NCBI GenBank assembly: GCA_943914475.1
Contig: CALUCE010000005.1
Location: forward strand, 41,450-105,449
Source: an uncultured Anaerococcus sp.
Lineage (GTDB): Bacteria; Bacillota; Clostridia; Tissierellales; Peptoniphilaceae
Direction of reading: 5' to 3'
Length of the DNA: 64,000 nt
The translations under genes were made by a program, and so were the position numbers. Positions 1 to 47,150 of this stretch are shown piece by piece (positions within the stretch are counted from its first letter, which is position 1; each line of letters begins with the position of its first letter). The notes under the pieces are model-generated. The model saw only the letters and a program-made list of their open reading frames with translations, did no database searches and was not told the origin of the DNA.

Positions 1-2578
1 AGTCCTGTGGTTGGTTCGTCCAAGAGGTAGATAGTGTTGCCTGTGGATCTTTTGGAAAGTTCTGAGGCAAGTTTTACTCTTTGGGCTTCTCCTCCGGAAA
101 GCTCTGTGGATGGTTGGCCGATTTTAATATAGCCTAGACCTACATCATAGAGGGTTTGGAGTTTTCTAACTATTGGAGGGTGGTTTTCGAAAAACTCTAT
201 CCCTTCTTCTACAGTCATATTTAGGACATCTGATATATCTTTGCCCTTATATTTTACTTCCAAGGTTTCTCTATTATATCTTTTGCCGTGGCATACTTCA
301 CATGGTACATAAATATCTGGCAAGAACATCATATCTACTTTTATAGTTCCATCTCCAGAACAAGCCTCGCACCTGCCTCCTTTTACGTTAAAGGAGAATC
401 TTCCCTTGTCAAAACCACGAATCTTAGCTTCGTTGGTCATGGCAAAGACTTCACGAATATTGTCAAAGACCTTGGTGTAGGTTGCTGGGTTGGATCTTGG
501 AGTCCTACCTATTGGGGATTGGTCTATGGAGATAATCTTATCAACTTGATCAGCTCCTATAATCTCATCATGCTTACCTACTTTTATTTTTGTCTTGTTG
601 ATTTTTCTGGCTAGTCCCTTGTAAAGTATTTCGTTTACTAGAGATGATTTGCCTGATCCTGAAACTCCGGTAACTGTGGTAAACACCCCTAGAGGAAATT
701 TAACATCTATGTCTTTTAGGTTATTTTCCCTGGCTCCTTTTACTTCTATTAACCTATCTGAAGTCCTTCTTTTTTCTGGAACGGGAATCTTAACCCTGCC
801 TGCTAGATAATCTCCCGTTATGGAATTTTTGCAAGATTTAATATCGGCAAGACTTCCTTGGGCTACCACTTCTCCACCGTGGATTCCAGCCAAGGGGCCT
901 ATATCTACTATATAATCAGCTTCCTTGATGGTATCTTCATCGTGTTCCACAATAATCAAAGTATTGCCCACATCTGTTAGGTTTCTTAAGGATTTTATGA
1001 GTTTATCATTATCCCTTTGGTGCAGACCTATGGATGGCTCATCAAGTACATAGCAAACTCCCACAAGTCCTGACCCTATTTGGGTAGCAAGTCTTATTCT
1101 TTGGCTTTCTCCACCTGAAAGTGTTGAGGCAGACCTTGCTAAGGTCAAGTAGCCAAGTCCAACGTCTTGGAGGAATTTAAGCCTTCCTCTGATTTCTTTT
1201 ATGATAAGCTCTGCTATCTTGGCCTTCATTGGTTCTAGTTCTAAATCTCTAAAGAATATTATGGAATCATCCACACTCATCCTAGCCACTTGGGATATAT
1301 TTTTATCTCCTACCTTGATAGCAAGAACTTCAGGTTTTAGCCTGTCTCCATGGCAGGTTCCGCATTCTTCCTCTGCCATATAGTCCCTAAACTTCTTTTT
1401 CATGTTTTCAGAGTTGGTTCTATGATACCTATCTTGGATGTTCTTTATAACTCCTTCAAAGTGACCCTTGTATTTTTTTACTCCTGAAAAATGTGAGTCA
1501 AAAACAAAGGAAATCTCTTCCTTGGTTCCATAAAGAATCTCATCTATCATTTCCTTAGGAGCTTCTTTTATTGCCTTGTCTGTTGGGAAGTCATACTTTT
1601 TGGCTATGGCTCTTACTACTTGGTAATAATAGGTACCTTTGGCTGAAGTCGCATAAGGCTCTATGGCTCCTTGGTCTATGGTCAAGTCCTTGTCTGGTAT
1701 AACTAGGTCAGGATCAACTTGGATATGAAAACCTAGCCCATTACAGTCTGGACACATACCTATAGGGGCATTGAAGGAGAACATATTTGGTGTAATCTCT
1801 GGTAGGGATATGTGGCCATCTGGACAAGCAAGGTTTGCTGACATCAAAAAGCCTTCCCCACCTATCACATCAATCTCAACCAAGTCTTCTGCCAAGTCAA
1901 GGGCAGTTTCTAGAGATTCTGTAAGTCTGGCGTTTATATTTTCCTTTATAATAATCCTGTCTACTATAACTGAAATATCATGTTTTTTATTTTTATCAAG
2001 TTCTATTTCTTCTTCTAGGTCATATCTTTCCCCGTCAATCATCACCCTTACATAACCTTGTTTTTGGATATTTTCTAGGGCTCTTTTGTGTTGGCCTTTT
2101 TTGCCTCTGATAACTGGGGCAAGAATTTGAATCCTGGTTCTTTCCTCCAGGGTCAAGACCTTGTCCACCATTTGGTCTATGGTTTGGGCTTCAATCTTTT
2201 TGCCACAAACTGGACAATAGGCATCTCCTATTCTTGCAAAGAGCAAACGGTAGTAGTCATAAATTTCTGTTACTGTCGCAACTGTTGATCTAGGGTTACG
2301 GTTGGTCGTCTTTTGGTCAATAGAAATAGAAGGAGAAAGTCCTTCTATTGAATCTACTTCTGGTTTGTCTAGGTTGCCTAAAAACTGCCTAGCATATGAG
2401 GAAAGACTTTCCACATACCTTCTTTGACCCTCTGCATATATGGTGTCAAAGGCAAGAGTTGATTTTCCAGAACCTGAAAGTCCTGTAAAAACAATCATCT
2501 TGTCCCTTGGTAGGGTCAGGTCTATGTTTTTTAGGTTGTTGGTCCTAGCACCCTTTATAATAATCTTATTTTCTGTCA
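1..2578 (-). CDS. uvrA: Excinuclease ABC subunit A (UvrA), 5' part present; 3' end runs off the window
   Basis: Reverse translation from the ATG at 2578 gives MTENKIIIKGARTNNLKNIDL...[36 protein letters not shown]. Two ABC ATPase modules and CxxC zinc-finger motifs are present, with no stop codon before position 1. The RBS-ATG sits 1 bp after the uvrB stop, the usual uvrBA arrangement. Confidence 0.93.
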
Positions 2579-32713: not shown

Positions 32714-34414
32714 ATGAAAGATCCAAGAGATAAAAATAAGATAGAAAATCCACTTGATTCAAGAAACGCCAGTGTTCACAGCAAAGAGCTTAGAAGAGCT
32801 GGTGGACAAAGGGTTGCAAACAACGAAGATTCCCTTACAGCAGGAAAAAGAGGCCATATTTCTGTCCAAAATCTTTGGCTATTCGAAAAACATGCCCACT
32901 TTAATAGAGAAGTTATCCCAGAAAGAAGGATGCATGCCAAGGGCTGGGGAGCTTGGGGAGAATTTACTGTAACCAATGATATTAGTAAATACACCAGGGC
33001 CAAAATTTTCCAAGAAGTTGGCAAGAAGACTAAGATCTTCTCCCGTATGTCAACTGTTGCCGGAGAACGTGGTGCAGCAGATGCAGAAAGAGATATCCGT
33101 GGCTTTGCCCTTAGGTTTTATACAGAAGATGGAAATTGGGATATAGTAGGAAACAATACCCCAGTATTCTTCTTTAGAGATCCTATGAAATTTATAGACC
33201 TAAACCACGCTATAAAAAGAGATCCTCACACTCACCTAAGAAGCCCAAATTCAAACTGGGACTTTTGGACTTCCCTACCAGAATCACTCTCGCAAGTAAC
33301 CATAACCATGTCTGACAGGGGTATACCATCATCCTTTAGGTATATGCACGGATTTGGTTCCCATACCTATTCCATGATAAACAAAGATGGAGTCCGCCAT
33401 TGGGTAAAATACCACTTTAGAAGTCAACAAGGTATACAAAACTGGACCGACCAAGAAGCAGAATATATAGTTTCAAAAGACAGAGAATCATCCGGTCGTG
33501 ACCTTTATTCAGCCATAGAAACAGGAGACTATCCAAAATGGAAGATGTATAGCCAAGTTATGACCGAAGAAGAAGCAGAAAAAACTTCCTTCAACCCATT
33601 TGACTTAACCAAGATGTGGCCAAAAAAAGACTTTCCACTTATAGAAGTTGGAGAATATGAACTAAACAAGGTTCCAGACAACTTCTTCCAAGATGTGGAA
33701 CAAGCAGCCTTCTCCCCTGCCAATATAGTAGACGGTGTAGGCCTATCCCCTGACAGAATGCTCCAACTAAGACCCTTTGCCTATGGAGATGCCCAAAGAT
33801 ATAGGCTGGGTGTAAACCACCACCAAATCCCTGTAAACAAGCCTTTGGGAGTTGAAAATCCTCATGACTTCCATAGGGATGGACAAATGAGAGTTGACGG
33901 TAACAAGGGAGATGAAATCCACTATGGACCAAACTCCTATGGAGCCTGGCAAGATGATACATCTTTGGAAGCTGTGGTAGATAAGGGCGGAGATGTAAAA
34001 AGATATGACTTTAGAAAAGACGACCACGATTACTTCTCCCAAGTAGGCGATCTTTTCAGAAACATGACCGAGGACCAACAATTGGTTCTTTGTGAAAACA
34101 CTGCAAGAAATATGGAAGATTCAACCATGCAAATCAAACACCGCCACATAGCCAATACCTACCAAGCAGACCCAGAGTACGGAAAAGGTGTTGCCAAGGC
34201 CCTAGGCATAGATATAGATACAGTAGATCTCGAAAGAAATTACGATTCTAGAGAAGAATGGGAAAAATCCTTAGCCAAGGACAAAGACTTAGACTACCCA
34301 ACAGAAAAAGCCATGCCAGAAAGTGCCAAGGACCTTCCAGAAGAAGGAAGAGACACAAACGTAGACGATCCAAAAACTTTGTCAGATCCTTATGATGATC
34401 CTTATCTTCTATAG
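32714..34414 (+). CDS. katA: Monofunctional heme catalase
   Basis: 566 aa containing [22 protein letters not shown] (distal His region) and [12 protein letters not shown]. The size matches a typical clade-3-like core with a C-terminal extension. Confidence 0.9.
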
Positions 34415-38071: not shown

Positions 38072-38524
38072 TTACTTTATTCTTTCTGTTTCTTCATCCC
38101 ATTTTTCGGCGGATGCTACCATCTTATCGAGAATCTCCAAGAAGGTTTCTTGGTCTTTTTCGTCTACATTTTCTAGGCAAGTGTTTTTGAAGTCTTCTGC
38201 TATAGAGGTTAATTTTTCATTTACTTCCTTACCTGCCTGGGTAAGTCCTATGACCTTTCTTCTTTTATCTTCTTGGTCTTCTTTTCTTTCTATAAAATCC
38301 TGTTTTTCTAGCCTGTCCAAGATTCCTGTTATGGTTGGTTGGCTAGCTCCCATAAGTTCTGCCAGTTCTTTTTGGCTTAGGTATTCGTTCTTATTTATAT
38401 AGTACATGGCGAACCACTGAGATTTGGTTACATTATATATCATAAGCCTATTGTTTAAGCATTCTGCAAGTCTTTTTGCCGCTACGTTGGTCACAAAGGC
38501 TACACATTTCTCTAAATCAAACAA
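38072..38524 (-). CDS. MarR-family transcriptional regulator, candidate OhrR-like peroxide sensor
   Basis: 150 aa with a winged HTH (SQKELAELMGASQPTITGILDRLEKQDFIERKED). An N-terminal helix Cys (LEKCVAFV) sits where the OhrR sensing Cys would be. Confidence 0.7.
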   Translation of the reverse strand: MFDLEKCVAFVTNVAAKRLAECLNNRLMIYNVTKSQWFAMYYINKNEYLSQKELAELMGASQPTITGILDRLEKQDFIERKEDQEDKRRKVIGLTQAGKEVNEKLTSIAEDFKNTCLENVDEKDQETFLEILDKMVASAEKWDEETERIK

Positions 38525-38537
38525 GTATCATCCCACC

Positions 38538-39458
38538 TTATTTCATATATTTATTGATTTTTTCTTCAATATGAATTTGAGAGTATCTTTCTCCTTCAAG
38601 ACTTGATTTTAAGCCATCTAGGGCTTTAAGGTCAAGACTGTCTGAGTATACTTCTATAGCTTTAATTATATCATTTTCTATCCAAAATTTAAAATCAAGG
38701 GGTTTGTTCTTGTGGTAGTATCTTCTTTCTATATGGGCCTTTTCATTTTTTCCATAAATCCATTCATCTTCTGATATTTTTTTGTAGCTAGCTAGCTCTC
38801 CATCTTGATCTTGGTGGGTTTCTTCTTGGGATGAAGGATAAAAATCTTTAAAAGATTCTACCAAATTTTCCTTAAGGGCTTCTATATCCAAGTCCTTGTC
38901 CAGATCCTTAAGATTGCATACCCTAGACCTTACAGACTTAATACCCTTGCCTGTAAATTTGCTAATATCTGGTGTCAGACACTTTTCCAAAACGCTAAGA
39001 TCAAGGTCTACCATCAAGGTTCCATGGACCATAAATTTTTCCTCATCTTCTATAAAGGCCATACCGGAAAACTTCTTCCCATCAACGGTTAGGTCATTTC
39101 TCCCATCAAGTTTTCCTCTAATCTTGGATTTTTCCAAGGCCTTTAAGACTATAGCCATCCACTTGTCCATGTCCTTATTTTTTTGACTTGAAATAAAGGT
39201 AAAGTTTAGGTTACCCAAATCGTGGTAGACTGCTCCTCCTCCAGTAAATCTTCTTACAGGGAGGATATTTTCCTTGTTTATAAATTCTAGGTCAAGCTCT
39301 TGGTAGGCATTTTGGTTTCTTCCCATAACCACACAGGGTGAATTTTGCCAAAGTAGAAAGATTACTTCGTCTTTATCTAGGTTTGTGTAATAGGCATATT
39401 CACTGGCTACGTTTTTATATGGATTAGTAGATTTTAGGTCAATTATTCTGGCTTTCAT
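38538..39458 (-). CDS. lplA: Lipoate-protein ligase A
   Basis: 306 aa with the BPL/LPL catalytic domain (RRFTGGGAVYHDLGNLNFTFI) and the C-terminal LplA domain. Confidence 0.85.
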   Translation of the reverse strand: MKARIIDLKSTNPYKNVASEYAYYTNLDKDEVIFLLWQNSPCVVMGRNQNAYQELDLEFINKENILPVRRFTGGGAVYHDLGNLNFTFISSQKNKDMDKWMAIVLKALEKSKIRGKLDGRNDLTVDGKKFSGMAFIEDEEKFMVHGTLMVDLDLSVLEKCLTPDISKFTGKGIKSVRSRVCNLKDLDKDLDIEALKENLVESFKDFYPSSQEETHQDQDGELASYKKISEDEWIYGKNEKAHIERRYYHKNKPLDFKFWIENDIIKAIEVYSDSLDLKALDGLKSSLEGERYSQIHIEEKINKYMK

Positions 39459-41389
39459 TATTGGTGAATACCTCTATCATGGATATCTAGGGCAGCCTCA
39501 TGGATGACTTCTGAAGTCGTAGGGTGGGCAAAGACTGTATGCATGATGTCTTTTGCTCTAAGCTTATTTTTTATGGCAAGGCTTAGGCATGCTATCAGAT
39601 TTGATGCATCTGGTCCTATAATCACACAACCCAAAATCTCATCATCATCTCCTGCCAGCAACTTGATAAAGCCCTTGTTTTCTCCCATGGTCATGGCCTT
39701 GCCATTGGCTGCAAAATCAAAGATTGACTTCTTGTAGGAAATATTTTTTTCCTTAAGTTCTTCTTCCCTGTAGCCAATGCTTGCTATTTCAGGTCTTGTA
39801 TAAACAACCGAAGGAATTTCCTTATCCAAAAGACTTCTTTCATCTCCCAAGATATAGTCCACAGCAAGGATTGCTTCGTGGGAGGCTAGGTGAGCAAGTT
39901 TTAATCTATTTGAAACATCTCCTATGGCAAAGATATGGTCAACTGTAGTCTTTCTGTTTTCATCAACAAGGATATTGCCATTTTTCTCATCAACCATAAC
40001 CCTTGTCTTTTCAAGTCCAAGTCCTTGTGTATTGGCTCTTCTTCCTGTTGCCATAAGGACCTTATCTCCTATGCTTGATAAGACTTTGCCGTCTTTTTCA
40101 TAGGTAACTATATATTTTCCTTCTATACTTTCTTTTATAGAGGTAACCTTGGCAGAAGTTGAAACTCTAATATCCTTTTCTTCACAAATTCTTTCCATTT
40201 CACTTCCACAGTCCTTATCAAACATAGGAAGTAGCGAGTCTTGGTATTCTATGATATGAACTTGGGATCCAAAGGTTTTAAAGATTGAGGCAAATTCAAG
40301 TCCTATTACCCCTCCACCTATAACTAGGAGAGTCTCTGGAATCTCCTTTAAATCAAGGGCTTCTGTAGAAGTAATGACCCCTTTAAGGTCATGGCCCTCA
40401 ATTTTTAGGACGTTTTCATTTGAGCCAGTTGCTATAATAATATTTTTGGCTTCTATTATAGTAGAACCAACCTTAACTCTTTTATCATCCAAAAATGATG
40501 CCTGACTCCTTAGCAAGTCGACCTCGTTTTTCTTAAGAAGATGGTCTATACCGGAAACTAGGTTTTCTACTATGCCGTCTTTTCTCTCTACAATCTTAGG
40601 CATATTTGGGGCAAATTCTCTTGGTCCGTCTATGCCAAAGTCTGAAAGCTCTCTTGCCATATCCAAACGGTGGGCTGACTCTACCAGGCTCTTGGTTGGT
40701 ATACAACCAACATTGAGGCAGGTTCCCCCAAGCCTATCTTTTTCTACAAGGGCCACATCAAGTCCGCACTTGGCTCCGTAGATAGCTCCAACATAGCCAC
40801 CTGGGCCTGCTCCTATTACCAGGAGATCTTTTTTGATTATTTTTTCATCTCCTGTCTCTTCCAAAGAAGACTCTTCTGAATTTTCTGAAGCTTGGTTTTC
40901 CCTTGGAGTTTTTAAAATAATGAGTGTTTCTCCAGCGTCCACATCATCTCCTTCTTCATAGAGGATTCTATCAACAAGGCCTGACTCACTTGCCTTTATT
41001 TCCCTATTGCCCTTGGCTGTTTCCACATGGCAAAGGACCTGACCTTTTTCTACCTTTTGGCCTACTTCTATTTCAATTTTCCCCAAGCTGTGGGTTTTCT
41101 TGCCAGGAATTATAGGCACCTTGATTTCTACTAGGTCAAAGTCTAAAGTTTGTTTTTCTACTTCCTCTAAGATAAGAAGAGTATCTCCAACCAAAATCTG
41201 GTCTCCTTCTTCTACAAGGATTTTCTCTACTATACCATCTCCACTTGCCTTTATTTCTCTATTGCCCTTGGCTGTTTCCACATGGCAAAGCAGGTCTCCC
41301 TCTGCCACTTTTTGGCCTACTTCTACTTCAATTTTCCCCATCAAATGATTTTTTTTACCTGGTATAACAGGCACTTTTATTTCAATCAT
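39458..41389 (-). CDS. Dihydrolipoyl dehydrogenase (E3) fused to two N-terminal lipoyl domains
   Basis: There are two lipoyl-domain repeats of about 75 aa, each carrying the candidate lipoyl-lysine motif CHVETAKGNREIKAS. Then come an FAD GxGxxG (VIGAGPGGYVGA), the redox-active CxxxxC (GGTCLNVGCIP), an NAD-binding domain and the dimerisation HPT motif (AHPTTSEV). Confidence 0.88.
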   Translation of the reverse strand: MIEIKVPVIPGKKNHLMGKIEVEVGQKVAEGDLLCHVETAKGNREIKASGDGIVEKILVEEGDQILVGDTLLILEEVEKQTLDFDLVEIKVPIIPGKKTHSLGKIEIEVGQKVEKGQVLCHVETAKGNREIKASESGLVDRILYEEGDDVDAGETLIILKTPRENQASENSEESSLEETGDEKIIKKDLLVIGAGPGGYVGAIYGAKCGLDVALVEKDRLGGTCLNVGCIPTKSLVESAHRLDMARELSDFGIDGPREFAPNMPKIVERKDGIVENLVSGIDHLLKKNEVDLLRSQASFLDDKRVKVGSTIIEAKNIIIATGSNENVLKIEGHDLKGVITSTEALDLKEIPETLLVIGGGVIGLEFASIFKTFGSQVHIIEYQDSLLPMFDKDCGSEMERICEEKDIRVSTSAKVTSIKESIEGKYIVTYEKDGKVLSSIGDKVLMATGRRANTQGLGLEKTRVMVDEKNGNILVDENRKTTVDHIFAIGDVSNRLKLAHLASHEAILAVDYILGDERSLLDKEIPSVVYTRPEIASIGYREEELKEKNISYKKSIFDFAANGKAMTMGENKGFIKLLAGDDDEILGCVIIGPDASNLIACLSLAIKNKLRAKDIMHTVFAHPTTSEVIHEAALDIHDRGIHQ

Positions 41390-41411
41390 CCCTCATCCTT
41401 TCCAAAACAAA

Positions 41412-41440
41412 AGCCTGTCTTTCAACAGGCCGTAGTAAGT
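41412..41440 (-). terminator. Intercistronic hairpin plus U-run (terminator or attenuator) between osmC and the lpd fusion
   Basis: On the minus strand GCCTGTtgaaagACAGGC is followed by TTTTGTTTTGG. Confidence 0.5.
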
Positions 41441-41446
41441 AAATGT

Positions 41447-41890
41447 CTATTCAGCAACTACTTTTGATAATTTTAGTGGAACACCATTAGATAGGCAGTC
41501 ACCTACTGGACATCTTGTTTCTATAAATTCAGCAAATTTTTCTAGTTCTTCTTGGCTGTTGTCTGCTTTGAAGTGCATAGAATAACGAATTTCTTGGAAA
41601 CCGTTTCTTACTCCATCTGCTAGTCCCATAAATCCATCTGGATCTAGGTCACCTTCTAGTTCTACGTGGAAACCTTCTAGGTTTATTCCGTTAGCTTCTG
41701 CAAAAGCAAAGGCTACTATAGTTTGGCAAGAACCAAGAGCACAAAGTAGAGCTTCTACTGGGTTCATACCAGTGTCTGTTCCACCCATTTCAGCTGGTTC
41801 GTCCATGGTTATCTTGAAGTTTCTAGCTGAAGATTCTACTTGTAATCCTTGTGGTGTCTTTTTTGCAATAGCTTTAAATGTTTGTTTCAT
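41447..41890 (-). CDS. OsmC/Ohr-family thiol peroxidase
   Basis: 147 aa with the two conserved Cys of the family (CALGSCQ and ETRCPV). Confidence 0.8.
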   Translation of the reverse strand: MKQTFKAIAKKTPQGLQVESSARNFKITMDEPAEMGGTDTGMNPVEALLCALGSCQTIVAFAFAEANGINLEGFHVELEGDLDPDGFMGLADGVRNGFQEIRYSMHFKADNSQEELEKFAEFIETRCPVGDCLSNGVPLKLSKVVAE

Positions 41891-42866: not shown

Positions 42867-43805
42867 TTACCTGTCTTTTAGTTTTGTATAGTCTTTTAGC
42901 ACACTTATGGACTTATAGGCAGGTCTTATAATCTTCTTATCTTGAATTTGCTCAAGTCTGTGGGCACACCAGCCACTCATCCTTGACACGGAAAAAAGTG
43001 GTGTGTAGAGTTCTTCTGGAATTTTAAGCATCTTATAAACAAAGCCTGAATACATATCGACATTGGCACAGGCTGGATAGGCCTTATCAAACCTTTCTTG
43101 AACAAGCCTTCCTCCAATTTTTTCTACCCTTTCTATAAAGGCAAATTCCTCTACTTTTCCAGTTTTCTCTGCAAGGATTTTGGCTTGTTTTTTTAATAAA
43201 ATCGCCCTAGGATCTGATAGGGTATAGACAGCATGACCCAGGCCATATATCAAGCCCTTTTGGTCAAAGGCCTTGGCATCTAATATTTTTACTAGATAGT
43301 CTGTAAGCTTTTCATCATCATTTATATCACCGATATTTTCTTCTATGTTCCTTAGCATTTGGGCAACTTTTAAATTGGCACCACCGTGGCGGGGTCCCTT
43401 AAGAGAAGCAAGGCCTGCTGCTATGGAAGAGTAGGTATCGGTGCCTGAGGATGAAACCACATGGGTGGCAAAGGCTGAGTTATTTCCTCCACCATGCTCT
43501 GCATGGACTATCAAAAGTAGGTCTAGTATCTTCGCCTCAAGGTCTGAAAAATCATCCTCATCCCTAATCAGGTGGAGTATATTTTCTGCTATGGACTTAT
43601 CTTCATAGGGATAGTGAATATATAGAGACTTGCCATCTATATAGTGTTTTTTAGCTTGGTAGGAGTAGGCCATAGTTCCTGTAGAATCTTGAGTAAGAGT
43701 TTGGTCTATTTTTATTGCAATTTCACTACCAGCCTTTAAATCGCCCTTTAAAAGATGGTCTTGTAAAATTTTCATAGCTAGTGATTTTCCCATAAAAACC
43801 TCCAT
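42867..43805 (-). CDS. Citrate-synthase-family protein, unusually short (312 aa)
   Basis: The C-terminal two-thirds align with citrate synthase catalytic blocks: HAEHGGGNNSAF, LKGPRHGGANLKV, GLGHAVYTLSDPRA, ANVDMYSGFVY and FSVSRMSGWCAHRLEQ. The N-terminal region is about 90 aa shorter than in CitZ-type enzymes. Confidence 0.7.
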   Translation of the reverse strand: MEVFMGKSLAMKILQDHLLKGDLKAGSEIAIKIDQTLTQDSTGTMAYSYQAKKHYIDGKSLYIHYPYEDKSIAENILHLIRDEDDFSDLEAKILDLLLIVHAEHGGGNNSAFATHVVSSSGTDTYSSIAAGLASLKGPRHGGANLKVAQMLRNIEENIGDINDDEKLTDYLVKILDAKAFDQKGLIYGLGHAVYTLSDPRAILLKKQAKILAEKTGKVEEFAFIERVEKIGGRLVQERFDKAYPACANVDMYSGFVYKMLKIPEELYTPLFSVSRMSGWCAHRLEQIQDKKIIRPAYKSISVLKDYTKLKDR

Positions 43806-43942: not shown

Positions 43943-44755
43943 CTATACATATGAATGCAAGCTTGGTAGGAAGGTATTTACTCCTATGTAGGTAAAGAGA
44001 ACTGCTATAAAGCCAATGATACAAAACCAAGCTGACTTTTTATCGGCAAGTCCCTTAGATCTTCTAAGGTGAAGGTAAAGAGTATAAATTATCCAGGTTA
44101 CTAAGGACCAGGTTTCCTTAGGATCCCAGGCCCAGTATCTTCCCCAAGATTTTTTAGCCCAAAGGGCTCCTGTAACTATGGTCATGGATAGGAATAAAAA
44201 TCCTACAAGTACTGCCCTGTAAGTTATCTCATCTAATTTTTCCTTGGAAGGAAGTCTAGCGTCCTTGGATTCTTTCTTATCTTGGATAAGAAACATAAGA
44301 GATGTTCCTGTGGCAACTGCAAAAGATCCATAGGAAAGGATGGCAAGACTAACGTGGATTACCAGCCACCAAGATTTTAAAGCTGGCATCAAGGGTTGGA
44401 TTTCTTTATTTCTTAAGGCTGCATAGCCTATAACTATTAAGAGTAAGGGAACTACAAAGGTACCCATGGAATAGTACTTGTACTTTTTTTCAAAAATTAT
44501 TAAAAATAAGGCTATGCCCCAGGCAAAGGCTGTTGCAAACTCATATTGGTTGGTTAAGGGTACTCTTTTTGATGCTATACCCCTAACAATAATGGCGATG
44601 GTATGGATAATAAAGGCAACCATCAAAACATTTTGAGCCCTTGTCCCTATTTTTTCGCTCTTATTTATATAGGAAAAAAAGTAGAGGACCATAGTTAGGG
44701 CATAAATAAGTACAGCAAACAAAAACAACTTATCTTCTACTTGCACTAAATTCAT
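43943..44755 (-). CDS. ccsA: Cytochrome c biogenesis protein CcsA/ResC (System II heme handling)
   Basis: 270 aa with the WWD domain (WGRYWAWDPKETWSLVTW) and conserved His residues. Confidence 0.85.
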   Translation of the reverse strand: MNLVQVEDKLFLFAVLIYALTMVLYFFSYINKSEKIGTRAQNVLMVAFIIHTIAIIVRGIASKRVPLTNQYEFATAFAWGIALFLIIFEKKYKYYSMGTFVVPLLLIVIGYAALRNKEIQPLMPALKSWWLVIHVSLAILSYGSFAVATGTSLMFLIQDKKESKDARLPSKEKLDEITYRAVLVGFLFLSMTIVTGALWAKKSWGRYWAWDPKETWSLVTWIIYTLYLHLRRSKGLADKKSAWFCIIGFIAVLFTYIGVNTFLPSLHSYV

Positions 44756-45780
44756 TTACTAACCTCTTTTCTTTTTGGACCTAAAAATACTATAAAGGTC
44801 CCTAGCATAAAGACTAAGGCTCCAAGTCCTGTAAGGAGCTCAAATCTGTCATTTCTAATATCTATAATTGTGTAGTAGTCAGGCTTGGTAAACTCAACTT
44901 GGTAGAGTCCTACCCTTACCTTATCACCTACTTCAGCAAGGTCGGTTTTGACAGGCATGGTTCCAAGATAGGCTGTATATTCTATAAGTGGATTTTTTAT
45001 TATCTTAGAATTATTAACTTTTTCCCCGTCTTTTTCTACTACATCAGGATAAAACTTGTTTAGCTTTATGGTTACCTTGGCATCATCTGCAGAAATATAT
45101 TCATTTTCCAAAAGTGCAGCCTGGCCTATTTCTTCATCTGCCTTATAAACCTTGGCATCTACATAGTAACCATAAGAGCTTTGAGAAAATTGATAGCCAT
45201 TTACAGTCATAGGATGGTTTACAGAAATTTCTCCCTGGTCGATGAGGTTTTTGTCATCATCATAAAACTTTACCTTACTTTGGTATTGGTCTACGTGCCC
45301 ATCTTCTGTAAGGAGGATATCAAAATCCAAGATTTCTATATTTAAATCTGTATCCTCAACCTTATTTATAGTATTTTTTACATTATAAACTCGACTTTGA
45401 TATGCTGTAGCATTGCCAATAACAAAAAATAAAATAATCAATATCAAGCCCAAATGCAAAAGCCACAAACCTATGTAATATGAACCTTCTTTAAATCTTT
45501 TTTCCTTAAAGATTTTTATCAGTGGCTTTACTTTTACAACTATACAAAAAAAGATTGATAGGGATAAGAAAATCGCTATTAATAAATACCACCAAGAAGT
45601 ATATACCTGGTCAAACTTCAAAAAAGTAATCACATTTCCAAAGTTTTGGTAGGCTTTTTGGTAAAATTCTGGGTCTTGGTTTTGGGGTATAAGACTTCCT
45701 ATAATAGAAGCTAGCATCAAGACAATAAGAATTATTATAGCAAACTTCATTGATGATAAAACTTTTTTTATCTTCTTCAA
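44752..45780 (-). CDS. ccsB: Cytochrome c biogenesis protein CcsB/ResB (short form)
   Basis: 342 aa with N-terminal TM helices in the ResB pattern (FAIIILIVLMLASIIGSLIPQ) and a large extracytoplasmic domain. It overlaps ccsA by 4 bp. Confidence 0.7.
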   Translation of the reverse strand: MKKIKKVLSSMKFAIIILIVLMLASIIGSLIPQNQDPEFYQKAYQNFGNVITFLKFDQVYTSWWYLLIAIFLSLSIFFCIVVKVKPLIKIFKEKRFKEGSYYIGLWLLHLGLILIILFFVIGNATAYQSRVYNVKNTINKVEDTDLNIEILDFDILLTEDGHVDQYQSKVKFYDDDKNLIDQGEISVNHPMTVNGYQFSQSSYGYYVDAKVYKADEEIGQAALLENEYISADDAKVTIKLNKFYPDVVEKDGEKVNNSKIIKNPLIEYTAYLGTMPVKTDLAEVGDKVRVGLYQVEFTKPDYYTIIDIRNDRFELLTGLGALVFMLGTFIVFLGPKRKEVSK

Positions 45781-45851
45781 ATATTTCTCCTAATCTTAAA
45801 AGGGCTGTGAAGCCCTCATACTTATAAGTATTTAGTCACAGCCCCTCACTT

Positions 45852-47150
45852 TTAAAGATCTTTTATAATATCATTTCCCTTGTTGATTAGCTCTTCTGAG
45901 TGGTCTAGGTATTTTAGAGCTTTCTTTTGGTTGTGGAAACCTTCAGAGTTCTCTACAAATACATAATCCCAGTAGAATTGAGCTTCTCTTTGGATATCTT
46001 GTAGGTCTTCCTTGGTCTTTTGATCCAAGTTACCTTCTTCAATCAAGATTTGTAGGTCCTTGATATAGGCTTCTAAAGCCTCTCCTACTGAATCTGTTTT
46101 TTCTACAACTGGCTTTTGGATACTTTCTGCAAGTTTTACTATTTCTTCTGCAGTTTGATCCTTGTGGCATTGTAGGCAGGATTCTTCAGGAGTCTTCAAA
46201 GGACTTGTCCAGTGGTGAGATGAGATCTTTTCTCCATCTTCTTCAACTTGTGGCATATGGCATGTTAGACAATCAAGGCCTGCGATTTGGTGAACTGAAC
46301 CATAGTAGGTTTCTGTCTCTGGGTGTTGGGCCTTTAAGACCTTGGCACCTGTAAGCTCGTGTTCCCAATCATAGAAGCCATCTTTTTGGTAATAAGCATA
46401 GGCTTCGTCAGCTCCAAGTCCCTCAGTCCATGGAAGTTTGACTGTTTTTTCATCAGGAGTCATGTAATATTCAACGTGACATTGGGCACAAGCTAGCATA
46501 GACCCATCAAGGTAGTCTTCAGCTGGATTGTTTTCTAGATGATCTTTCAAGTGTTGTCTGTTAATTTGAACCTTGCCTGGTGTATCCCCATGACAGTCGT
46601 AGCAAGTAAAGCCAACTATATCATGGCTTTTTACATACTCATCAAAGTCCATAGCAGAAAGACTAGGATCATCTACAAGCTCTTCGTTGAAGATTGAAAC
46701 CTTACAAGCAAGACAAGATGCACCAGCCTTAGGCCTTTTGGTGTTTATAACATCATCCAAGGCATAAACGTGACCCCTTGCTCTGTCGTATTGTTTTTCA
46801 AAACCGTAACCCTTATAGAAGGTCTTAAGGTATGGGTATTCTTTCAAATAATCTACTTGAACAGACCCTCCATATGTAGTTTTTTCCATTTCGCTATTTT
46901 TTTCAAAAGAATGAACATGTTCTGGGAAAGCTTCCTCATAGTCTTCCACAGGAGCTATGTCCTTAGGAAAGTCCTTAGTAGCAACAACCTTATTGTCTTC
47001 ATCGCTTGAAGTAACTTCGCTTGATGTAACTTCTGTAGAAGCTTCATTTGAAGGTTGATTTTCCGGAGCTTTATCTTGATTTCCACATCCATTCACTAAG
47101 AAAATAGCCAAAGCTAAAGTAAGTAAAGGAAATTGTTTTCTTATTTTCAT
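45852..47150 (-). CDS. nrfA: Pentaheme cytochrome c nitrite reductase NrfA (cytochrome c552), lipoprotein form
   Basis: It has one CxxCK (CLACK) and four CxxCH motifs (CYDCH, CAQCHVEYY, CLTCH, CLQCH). The N-terminal lipobox reads LVNGC. Confidence 0.88.
   Translation of the reverse strand: MKIRKQFPLLTLALAIFLVNGCGNQDKAPENQPSNEASTEVTSSEVTSSDEDNKVVATKDFPKDIAPVEDYEEAFPEHVHSFEKNSEMEKTTYGGSVQVDYLKEYPYLKTFYKGYGFEKQYDRARGHVYALDDVINTKRPKAGASCLACKVSIFNEELVDDPSLSAMDFDEYVKSHDIVGFTCYDCHGDTPGKVQINRQHLKDHLENNPAEDYLDGSMLACAQCHVEYYMTPDEKTVKLPWTEGLGADEAYAYYQKDGFYDWEHELTGAKVLKAQHPETETYYGSVHQIAGLDCLTCHMPQVEEDGEKISSHHWTSPLKTPEESCLQCHKDQTAEEIVKLAESIQKPVVEKTDSVGEALEAYIKDLQILIEEGNLDQKTKEDLQDIQREAQFYWDYVFVENSEGFHNQKKALKYLDHSEELINKGNDIIKDL

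Follow-up and report, generated by a model that had tools for sequence, protein, structure and literature searches.

Which lipoylated protein reduces the thiol peroxidases of the Ohr/OsmC superfamily in vivo has been an open question since the lipoyl dependence of these enzymes was found, the donors named so far being housekeeping E2 and H proteins in a second role. Ohr/OsmC proteins are recycled by lipoylated proteins together with dihydrolipoyl dehydrogenase (Lpd, also E3), not by thioredoxin or glutathione (Cussiol 2010, via PMC8945050). The question takes a concrete form in a stretch of 64,000 nucleotides from an uncultured Anaerococcus sp. (contig CALUCE010000005.1, positions 41,450 to 105,449; the whole of this stretch is hereafter the window), where a single operon carries the genes for an OsmC-like protein, an E3 preceded by two lipoyl domains in the same polypeptide, a lipoate-protein ligase (LplA) and a regulator of the MarR family. 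What might such an operon do? Judging from sequence comparison, we consider it probable that the four genes specify a hydroperoxide reductase that is driven by NADH and depends on lipoyl groups, along with the enzyme that matures it and a sensor.

Gene families were called by profile searches against Pfam (PF) and NCBIfam/TIGRFAM models with curated cutoffs. The transcription unit reads promoter, osmC, hairpin, E3, lplA, marR, terminator, and its elements are the following:

41976-41948, minus strand: promoter-like site upstream of osmC, TTGACA-17-TATACT, 11 of 12 consensus positions matched
41939-41918, minus strand: operator-like palindrome of the form 9-N4-9, AATAGATAG-TACG-CTAAGTATT, proposed MarR site
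41890-41447, minus strand: osmC, 147 aa (PF02566, 85.7 bits against a cutoff of 27.5)
41431-41402, minus strand: stem-loop and T-tract in the osmC/E3 spacer, GGCCTGTT-GAAA-GACAGGCT
41389-39458, minus strand: lipoyl-lipoyl-E3 fusion gene, 643 aa (TIGR01350, 505.2 bits against 408.8), with two Biotin_lipoyl stretches
39458-38538, minus strand: lplA, 306 aa (TIGR00545, 310.3 bits against 280)
38524-38072, minus strand: marR, 150 aa, TTG start (PF01047, 60 bits)
38066-38038, minus strand: intrinsic terminator 3' of marR, a 13-pair stem followed by a T run

A first-pass annotation, made from the sequence alone, had described four co-directional genes with short gaps and a hairpin after osmC, and both descriptions hold: the open reading frames (ORFs) lie exactly where it had placed them, all on the minus strand, and the hairpin proper (41431-41412) has 8 pairs followed by its T-tract, TTTGTTTT. 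The gap between osmC and the E3 gene is 57 nt, the E3 stop codon and the lplA start codon share 1 nt (TAATG), and the 13 nt between lplA and marR include a good ribosome-binding site. A search of the operon for riboswitches and other known RNAs in Rfam gave sub-threshold chance matches only.

The arrangement was followed in a synteny scan that searched a single genome of each species, using an alignment of OsmC proteins as the query, and that yielded 80 loci with OsmC proteins 63-87% identical; arrangements were counted where 3.7 kb or more lay downstream of osmC, which was the case at 68 loci. The full order osmC-lipoylE3-lplA-marR is found at 32 of the 68 loci, osmC-lipoylE3-marR at 8 and other arrangements with an adjacent E3 at 7, the E3 gene adjoining osmC at 47 of the 68 in all; three loci show osmC-marR and 18 show osmC alone. 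Carriers of this module include anaerobes and facultative species and belong to the Tissierellia, Clostridia, Bacilli and Spirochaetota, and hence to two phyla, Bacillota and Spirochaetota. Two contigs with homologues of the E3 fusion (L005 and L011) likewise have the four-gene block between differing flanks, and the E3-lplA core persists, with variations, down to 41-45% E3 identity (L012, L015, L016). In one of these more distant loci a cupin gene is inserted between osmC and E3 (L012), and in another an AhpD/CMD-family CxxC protein precedes lipoylE3-lplA in the place of OsmC (L016:2-3186). Each of the four gene families is common, and their adjacency could in principle be incidental, the chance meeting of unrelated genes; this idea is scarcely credible and is effectively refuted by the identical order in 32 genomes of two phyla with unrelated flanks, by the 1-nt overlap of E3 and lplA, and by the single promoter and single terminator that enclose the four genes. 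Recurrence of one gene order in dozens of genomes, between unrelated flanks, puts the arrangement well outside what chance would produce.

The centre of the operon is the fusion protein, whose parts are encoded as follows:

41389-41162, minus strand: lipoyl domain 1, residues 1-76, predicted lipoyl-lysine K41 (codon 41267-41269)
41140-40904, minus strand: lipoyl domain 2, residues 84-162, predicted lipoyl-lysine K126 (codon 41012-41014)
40903-40850, minus strand: acidic, Ser-rich flexible linker, approximately residues 163-180
40849-39458, minus strand: E3 core, with the Cys224/Cys229 redox disulfide, an NAD-type Glu381 and the His622-Glu627 dyad

The E3 assignment rests on the TIGR01350 score given above and on C224, C229, H622 and E627, which are invariant; Glu381 is likewise invariant or nearly so. 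An AlphaFold2 (AF2) model of the fusion has a predicted local distance difference test (pLDDT) score of 89.7 and, compared by Foldseek with solved E3 structures, gives a target-normalised TM-score of 0.93-0.95 at a root-mean-square deviation of 1.5 A. Both lipoyl domains are modelled as all-beta with a pLDDT of 80-90, K41 and K126 standing at beta-hairpin turns, and the joints at residues 78-83 and 164-180 are disordered in the model (pLDDT below 50 at 164-180). The best sequence matches of the lipoyl domains in the Protein Data Bank (PDB) are lipoyl domains of E2p, and K41 aligns with the lipoyl-lysine of the E. coli E2p lipoyl domains. The score, the two all-beta domains and this alignment bear out the double-lipoyl-domain E3 fusion of the first-pass annotation. 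Their fold, the alignment of the lysine and the presence of a ligase gene in the operon lead to the prediction that K41 and K126 are lipoylated.

The two lipoyl domains are 69% identical as protein, and Tandem Repeats Finder detected no duplication at the DNA level. Close relatives of the fusion have one or two lipoyl domains, and double domains turn up on a number of distinct branches of the module E3s (P0022/L015, P0004, P0137 and P0141), which suggests that the carrier domain was repeatedly duplicated in tandem, as in E2p proteins. The isolated lipoyl domain, used as the query of a word-index search, gave no matches; an exhaustive search of representative sequences was dominated by multi-lipoyl E2s and gave no clear stand-alone domain or other architecture, the short KGN-type matches in it being mostly truncated E3 fusions.

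A lipoyl-bearing E3 beside a lipoate ligase also admits a metabolic explanation, in which the two proteins serve mainly a glycine-cleavage, acetoin or 2-oxoacid dehydrogenase system encoded elsewhere and OsmC is a co-transcribed, opportunistic user. Lipoyl-E3 homologues of about 40% identity do lie in canonical E1alpha-E1beta-E2-E3 operons, and Tissierellia are amino-acid fermenters that could own a glycine-cleavage (GCV) system. The acetoin dehydrogenase operon of S. mutans with its downstream lplA (adhABCD-lplA) is, moreover, peroxide-induced and aids peroxide tolerance (PMC5700188). Several observations speak against this explanation. Probes for E1alpha, E1beta, E2, GcvH and GcvT found no tblastn match in the whole 64 kb window, which agrees with the first-pass statement that no 2-oxoacid dehydrogenase E1/E2 genes lie nearby, and 46 of the 47 E3-containing loci have no E1, E2 or GCV gene within 6 kb. 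In a neighbour-joining (NJ) tree of 174 E3 cores, which carries no bootstrap support values, all 55 module E3s fall into one clade, together with the OsmC-linked P0022 and all of another 24 proteins of KGN type, and this clade includes no E1/E2-linked and no lipoyl-less E3. The lipoyl signature differs as well: the motif is VETAKGNRE in the protein of the window and ET[AGS]KGN[RK] in the module family, against E[ST]DK in the E1/E2-linked relatives. The regulator of the operon has an invariant Cys and no likeness to metabolic regulators. Finally, Bacilli carry the module as an extra copy, and the Bacilli in question certainly possess a housekeeping pyruvate dehydrogenase (PDH) E3; Paenibacillus oralis has two osmC-lipoylE3-marR copies, about 0.7 Mb apart (L048 and L057; NZ_RRCN01000001.1). 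We regard the metabolic explanation as very unlikely.

The surface on which an E2 would dock was also compared. The docking site for the peripheral subunit-binding domain (PSBD) of E2 on E3 presumably includes acidic residues equivalent to Asp344 and Glu431 of the G. stearothermophilus enzyme. The Glu431 column holds E in 79 of 84 lipoyl-less E3s and E or D in 3 of 81 module E3s, and it is Lys in the E3 of the window; E1/E2-linked lipoyl-E3s are likewise without Glu there, with N in 8 of 9.

The ligase called in the first-pass annotation is a lipoate-protein ligase by its TIGR00545 score, with further matches to PF21948 (195.7 bits) and PF10437 (30.5 bits), so that both the catalytic and the C-terminal accessory domain are present; it is of the salvage type and has the GKKFSG lysine motif from residue 127. 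Its gene lies within the operon at all 38 Clostridia, Tissierellia and Spirochaete loci, against 2 of 13 Bacilli loci, a pattern that would fit a ligase needed mainly where housekeeping lipoylation is absent.

What the OsmC-like protein does with the electrons is the next step of the question. The protein belongs to the OsmC superfamily by its PF02566 score and by its AF2 model (pLDDT 83.8), which has the OsmC fold and matches 1lql, 6mjn, 2opl, 2onf and Ohr structures with a Foldseek probability of 1.00. The nearest solved structure is the OsmC-like protein of M. pneumoniae, 1lql, then 6mjn, 2opl and 2onf, and the Ohr structures reach a TM-score of about 0.7. A phmmer search of the PDB at E<=0.01 retrieved only 2opl, 1lql, 9wo1 and 2onf, none of them an Ohr or the OsmC of E. 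coli, and NCBIfam gave matches below threshold only (OsmC_like_Se at 65 against 95, SACOL1771 at 34 against 166). By these sequence comparisons, the peroxidase is a member of the third, "OsmC-like" group, of COG1765 type, and neither Ohr nor OsmC proper. The first-pass call of an OsmC/Ohr thiol peroxidase therefore stands as to superfamily, fold and Cys pair, and falls as to membership in Ohr or OsmC proper. The candidate catalytic pair, the presumed peroxidatic Cys55 in the long central helix (44-63) and the presumed resolving Cys127 in an RCPV motif, is invariant in 85 of 85 orthologues; Arg23 (81/85) and Glu46 (84/85) are candidate catalytic residues near Cys55, and these two, with Arg95, Arg102 and an EGDLDPDGF loop, are kept in at least 95% of the 85 orthologues.

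It is conceivable that the same relay acts on a substrate other than hydroperoxides, the OsmC-like protein being a lipoyl-dependent disulfide, persulfide or electrophile reductase or a redox chaperone. The protein lies outside Ohr/OsmC, and some sources name the third group 'predicted redox protein, regulator of disulfide bond formation'. Around the catalytic pair there is a pattern C-x4-C ... C-x4-C, formed with two extra cysteines, Cys50 (codon 41741-41743, in 80 of 85 orthologues) and Cys132 (codon 41495-41497, in 77 of 85), which are mostly conserved and have no part in the classical Ohr/OsmC mechanism. In Paenibacillus albidus (L085:3708-8721) a double-CMD (AhpD-like) protein, a DsbA-like protein and a second OsmC paralogue are encoded directly upstream of osmC-lipoylE3-marR, an arrangement that pairs the OsmC-like protein with DsbA-like and AhpD-like partners. 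On the other side stand the conservation of Arg23 and Glu46 next to Cys55 and the Cys-sensing MarR, which fits an oxidant signal. To our knowledge, peroxide reduction is the sole catalytic activity demonstrated for two-Cys members of the OsmC superfamily. We take MG_427 of M. genitalium to be the orthologue of 1lql. Peroxide reduction is reported for MG_427 (Zhang and Baseman 2014, via PMC8945050), and likewise for an OsmC-family protein of M. gallisepticum (PMC11720521). The record for the hydrogenosomal, third-group OsmC of Trichomonas vaginalis (TvOsmC) points both ways: this protein was reported active with its own H and L proteins (Nyvltova 2016, via PMC5384416), and one laboratory did not reproduce its peroxidase activity, finding it inactive in Meireles' assays, including a coupled assay with lipoamide and Xylella Lpd, with the suggestion that its own L and H proteins are required (PMC5384416). 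Inactivity with free lipoamide and a foreign Lpd, together with that suggestion, implies partner specificity. On balance a non-peroxide substrate seems unlikely, and hydroperoxide reduction is the activity carried forward here.

With the OhrR model NF052638 the MarR protein reaches 50.3 bits, where the cutoff is 200, and its identity to the OhrR proteins of B. subtilis and X. campestris is 22-23%; its best NCBIfam match is BilQ (71 against a cutoff of 125) and its nearest solved relative is MepR. Its Cys7 (codon 38504-38506), within a motif MF(N/D)LDDC, is present in 49 of 50 module-linked orthologues and lies in the helix-1 region, aligned two residues N-terminal of the sensing cysteine of OhrR, SarZ and MgrA (OhrR Cys15/Cys22). 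Tyr29 and Tyr40 of OhrR are absent, their columns holding Leu and Lys. The OhrR-like regulator of the first-pass annotation thus keeps its helix-1-region cysteine but loses the exact position of the sensing Cys, the match to the OhrR model and the tyrosines. Among the 50 orthologues Cys116 is kept only in a subclade of Tissierellia and Peptostreptococcus, and Cys22 is not conserved; assignment to the 2-Cys OhrR type, with Cys7 and Cys116, was considered and set aside, since Cys116 is not family-wide and is at most a local elaboration. From its sequence, the protein is best called a separate 1-Cys subfamily. By analogy it plausibly works like OhrR, with which it has in common a MarR repressor with an N-terminal helix-1 Cys, linkage to an OsmC-fold peroxidase and a palindrome over the promoter; it differs in that marR here comes last in the peroxidase operon, whereas OhrR is separately transcribed, and in the two-residue offset and the missing tyrosines.

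The -10 box is followed, 8 nt on, by the palindrome, which covers the predicted transcription start and has no second copy in the window; this single copy lies upstream of osmC. It is perfect in L005, L018 and L019, the first of which has the same readable layout of -35 and -10 boxes followed by the operator, and it has at most 5 mismatches in nearly all loci that contain marR, against 6-9 in marR-less loci on complete contigs. At 44 of 47 loci the osmC-E3 spacer holds a stem-loop; its folding z-score relative to shuffled sequences has a median of -4.1, and its sequence is not conserved. It may act as a partial terminator or attenuator, so that more OsmC than reductase is made. Within the 3' end of lplA (38606-38693, minus strand) lie two promoter-like sites, TTTAAA-17-TATAAT with a TG extension and TTGACC-18-TAAAAT, which could drive basal transcription of marR apart from the operon promoter; consensus matches such as these are frequent by chance in the AT-rich DNA of this locus.

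The mechanism that we propose would run as follows. LplA would attach scavenged lipoate to Lys41 and Lys126 at the expense of ATP. The E3 core, working in reverse of its metabolic direction, would pass electrons from NADH to FAD, then to Cys224/Cys229 and on to its own lipoyl arms, which would swing on the disordered linker of about 17 residues. The dihydrolipoyl arm would reduce the Cys55-Cys127 disulfide of the OsmC-like peroxidase, and the peroxidase would convert organic hydroperoxides to alcohols and possibly act on peroxynitrite or H2O2 too. At rest, a MarR dimer on the 9-N4-9 palindrome over the transcription start would keep the operon repressed; oxidation of Cys7 would release it, the oxidised Cys7 being perhaps paired with Cys116 in a disulfide in the present subclade. 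Termination of part of the transcripts at the stem-loop after osmC would leave OsmC in excess over reductase, ligase and repressor. A dedicated relay from NADH through E3-FAD and the fused lipoyl arm to OsmC had been put forward in the first-pass annotation, and the comparisons made here lend it support: the synteny at 47 of 68 loci, the E3 clade, the KGN signature, lplA at 38 of 38 loci outside the Bacilli, the Cys7 of MarR with its operator, and the replacement of OsmC by an AhpD-like protein.

How far is such a relay prefigured by known systems? PDB entries 6ebg and 6ebd show Ohr in complex with dihydrolipoamide, and the closest parallel in chemistry is the Ohr of Xylella fastidiosa, which is a two-Cys OsmC-fold peroxidase that depends on protein-bound dihydrolipoyl groups, Lpd and NADH (Cussiol 2010, via PMC8945050). 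The lipoyl carriers of Xylella are housekeeping E2 proteins (SucB/PDH E2) encoded elsewhere, whereas the carrier in the present operon forms part of a dedicated E3 paralogue, is of KGN type and is co-transcribed with peroxidase, ligase and regulator, and the peroxidase belongs to another subfamily. TvOsmC offers a third-group OsmC in an anaerobe, served by a lipoyl carrier and E3 without a complete metabolic complex; its carrier, in contrast, is a separate GcvH-type protein, and the system is eukaryotic and organellar, with no operon, dedicated ligase or regulator. In M. tuberculosis, Bryk et al. are said to have described in 2002 a peroxidase relay of AhpC, AhpD, DlaT (SucB) and Lpd. The OsmC of C. 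glutamicum uses AhpD and Lpd (Si 2019, via PMC8945050). The proposed relay resembles the mycobacterial and Corynebacterium relays in the course NADH, Lpd, lipoyl protein, thiol oxidoreductase, peroxide, and L016 with its AhpD-family protein belongs to the same likeness; the M. tuberculosis relay differs in having a PDH E2 as carrier and AhpD as adaptor to a peroxiredoxin, and no fused dedicated reductase.

In architecture the nearest counterpart is AhpF, a protein of thioredoxin-reductase fold with a thioredoxin-like carrier domain and no cofactor to attach. AhpF-AhpC and the present pair both consist of a flavoprotein with an N-terminal carrier on a flexible linker and a separate thiol peroxidase whose gene comes first; the difference is the E3 fold here and a lipoyl carrier that needs LplA. 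By this analogy, lipoyl-E3 is proposed to stand to OsmC as AhpF stands to AhpC. The lipoyl-E3s of PDH and acetoin systems (Neisseria P64k, 1gjx; N. gonorrhoeae E3, 5u25; S. mutans adhABCD-lplA) also have an N-terminal lipoyl domain, but theirs is of the DK motif type and has E1 and E2 genes alongside, unlike the module. With S. mutans adhABCD-lplA and the S. aureus GcvH-L/LplA2 group the module has in common an lplA by the E3 gene and a link between lipoate salvage and oxidative stress. Lipoate salvage via GcvH-L aids oxidative-stress resistance in S. aureus, but GcvH-L acts via ADP-ribosylation and sirtuin control, and not with OsmC (PMC12440151). One distant locus (L015) has a SIR2-family gene (585-1307, minus strand) divergent beside osmC, double-lipoyl-E3 and lplA, an arrangement reminiscent of the operon for oxidative stress with sirtuin, GcvH-L and LplA2 in S. 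aureus and S. pyogenes; this is a single case and may be coincidence.

Several points weigh against the operon being a dedicated hydroperoxide reductase. Sequence features, folds, catalytic residues, operon structure and co-conservation are the ground on which enzyme activities, lipoylation and DNA binding are proposed. The lipoyl domains do not have the canonical DKA motif and bear ETAKGN in its place. The lipoyl-protein inventory of this Anaerococcus is known for the 64 kb of the window only, a span too short to bear out the word self-contained in the first-pass annotation, and the NJ tree that separates the module E3s is one without bootstrap values. The OsmC-like protein is, by its sequence, outside both of the biochemically best-characterised subfamilies, and its nearest characterised relative in the third group, TvOsmC, is one whose activity was disputed between laboratories (PMC5384416). 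That 18 of 68 loci have no adjacent E3 indicates that the OsmC subfamily can use other reductants. In a Thermoanaerobacteraceae metagenome-assembled genome (MAG; L074:1103-6435), lplA-lipoylE3-osmC stands divergent beside gcvT-gcvH, which favours the metabolic explanation and makes a shared metabolic role of E3 possible; the lipoyl motif of this locus (...VNKM...) departs from the KGN signature, and it is the sole glycine-cleavage link among the 80 loci.

The surroundings of the operon in Anaerococcus were examined for what they might add. The same locus is found in human skin metagenome contigs, and near-identical proteins bear the label Anaerococcus sp. or Peptoniphilaceae. The neighbouring features of first concern are these:

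32714-34414, plus strand: catalase
37859-35877, minus strand: Old Yellow Enzyme (OYE)-type reductase, 660 aa, a fusion of an OYE/2,4-dienoyl-CoA-reductase-like part and a pyridine-nucleotide-disulfide reductase part
37938-37911, minus strand: promoter of the OYE gene, a perfect sigma-70 TTGACA-16-TATAAT

Catalase and OYE gene are present, as the first-pass annotation had it when it spoke of an oxidative-stress neighbourhood, but they do not travel with the module: these surroundings are particular to this species, and the flanks differ in other genomes. The OYE protein resembles BaiCD, BilR (the long-form bilirubin reductase) and mycofactocin OYE, all below cutoff. Regulation of the downstream OYE gene by the MarR protein, after the example of bilQ-bilR, was considered and rejected: marR travels with osmC beside unrelated downstream genes elsewhere, the operator lies only upstream of osmC, a strong terminator follows marR, and the OYE gene has its own perfect promoter. 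Further along, 43943-47150 of the window (minus strand), together with 4256-4552 of contig L001, encodes an NrfA-type cytochrome c552, ResB/CcsA cytochrome c maturation proteins and a YgbA_NO-family protein; this set for heme, nitrite and NO handling, with the catalase, is unusual for an obligate anaerobe and is unlinked to the module in other species. Next to it, a 312-aa ORF (42867-43805, minus strand) matches only positions 119-357 of the 357 of the citrate synthase profile, and its first approximately 45 residues (...IDQTLTQDSTGTMA) have what we take to be the look of an aconitase-family N-terminus. This citrate-synthase-like ORF may be chimeric or truncated; it is also present in skin-metagenome contigs.

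The biochemical principle behind the proposed relay is already known, and the dedicated fused system appears to be undescribed: no description of an OsmC-lipoylE3-LplA-MarR operon, of the KGN signature or of the MarR subfamily was found in the full texts searched, which do not take in subscription journals. Tentatively, and with slightly less than even confidence, we suggest that the KGN lipoyl-E3s may form a new family of dedicated peroxidase reductases, a lipoate-based counterpart of AhpF; that with third-group OsmC they may make up a widespread NADH peroxide reductase of anaerobic Bacillota and Spirochaetota; that lipoate may be a purely antioxidant cofactor in strict anaerobes such as Anaerococcus, where it would take no part in 2-oxoacid or glycine metabolism; and that the regulators may be a new 1-Cys MarR subfamily with its own operator.

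If the proposed relay is borne out, the cell would have a dedicated solution to the problem of the donor: one polypeptide would serve as both carrier and reductase, and a ligase and a sensor would come with it. As carrier, reductase, ligase and sensor are encoded in one operon, the question of the donor can be tested directly with three purified proteins. A function would be assigned to the poorly characterised third OsmC-like group, and there would be a reason why obligate anaerobes without 2-oxoacid dehydrogenases retain a lipoate ligase. The module would also be a small cassette for peroxide reduction coupled to NADH, equipped with a defined repressor/operator pair, and, for anaerobes of skin and wounds such as Anaerococcus, Peptoniphilus and Helcococcus, it would be a defence against oxygen and the lipid peroxides of the host.

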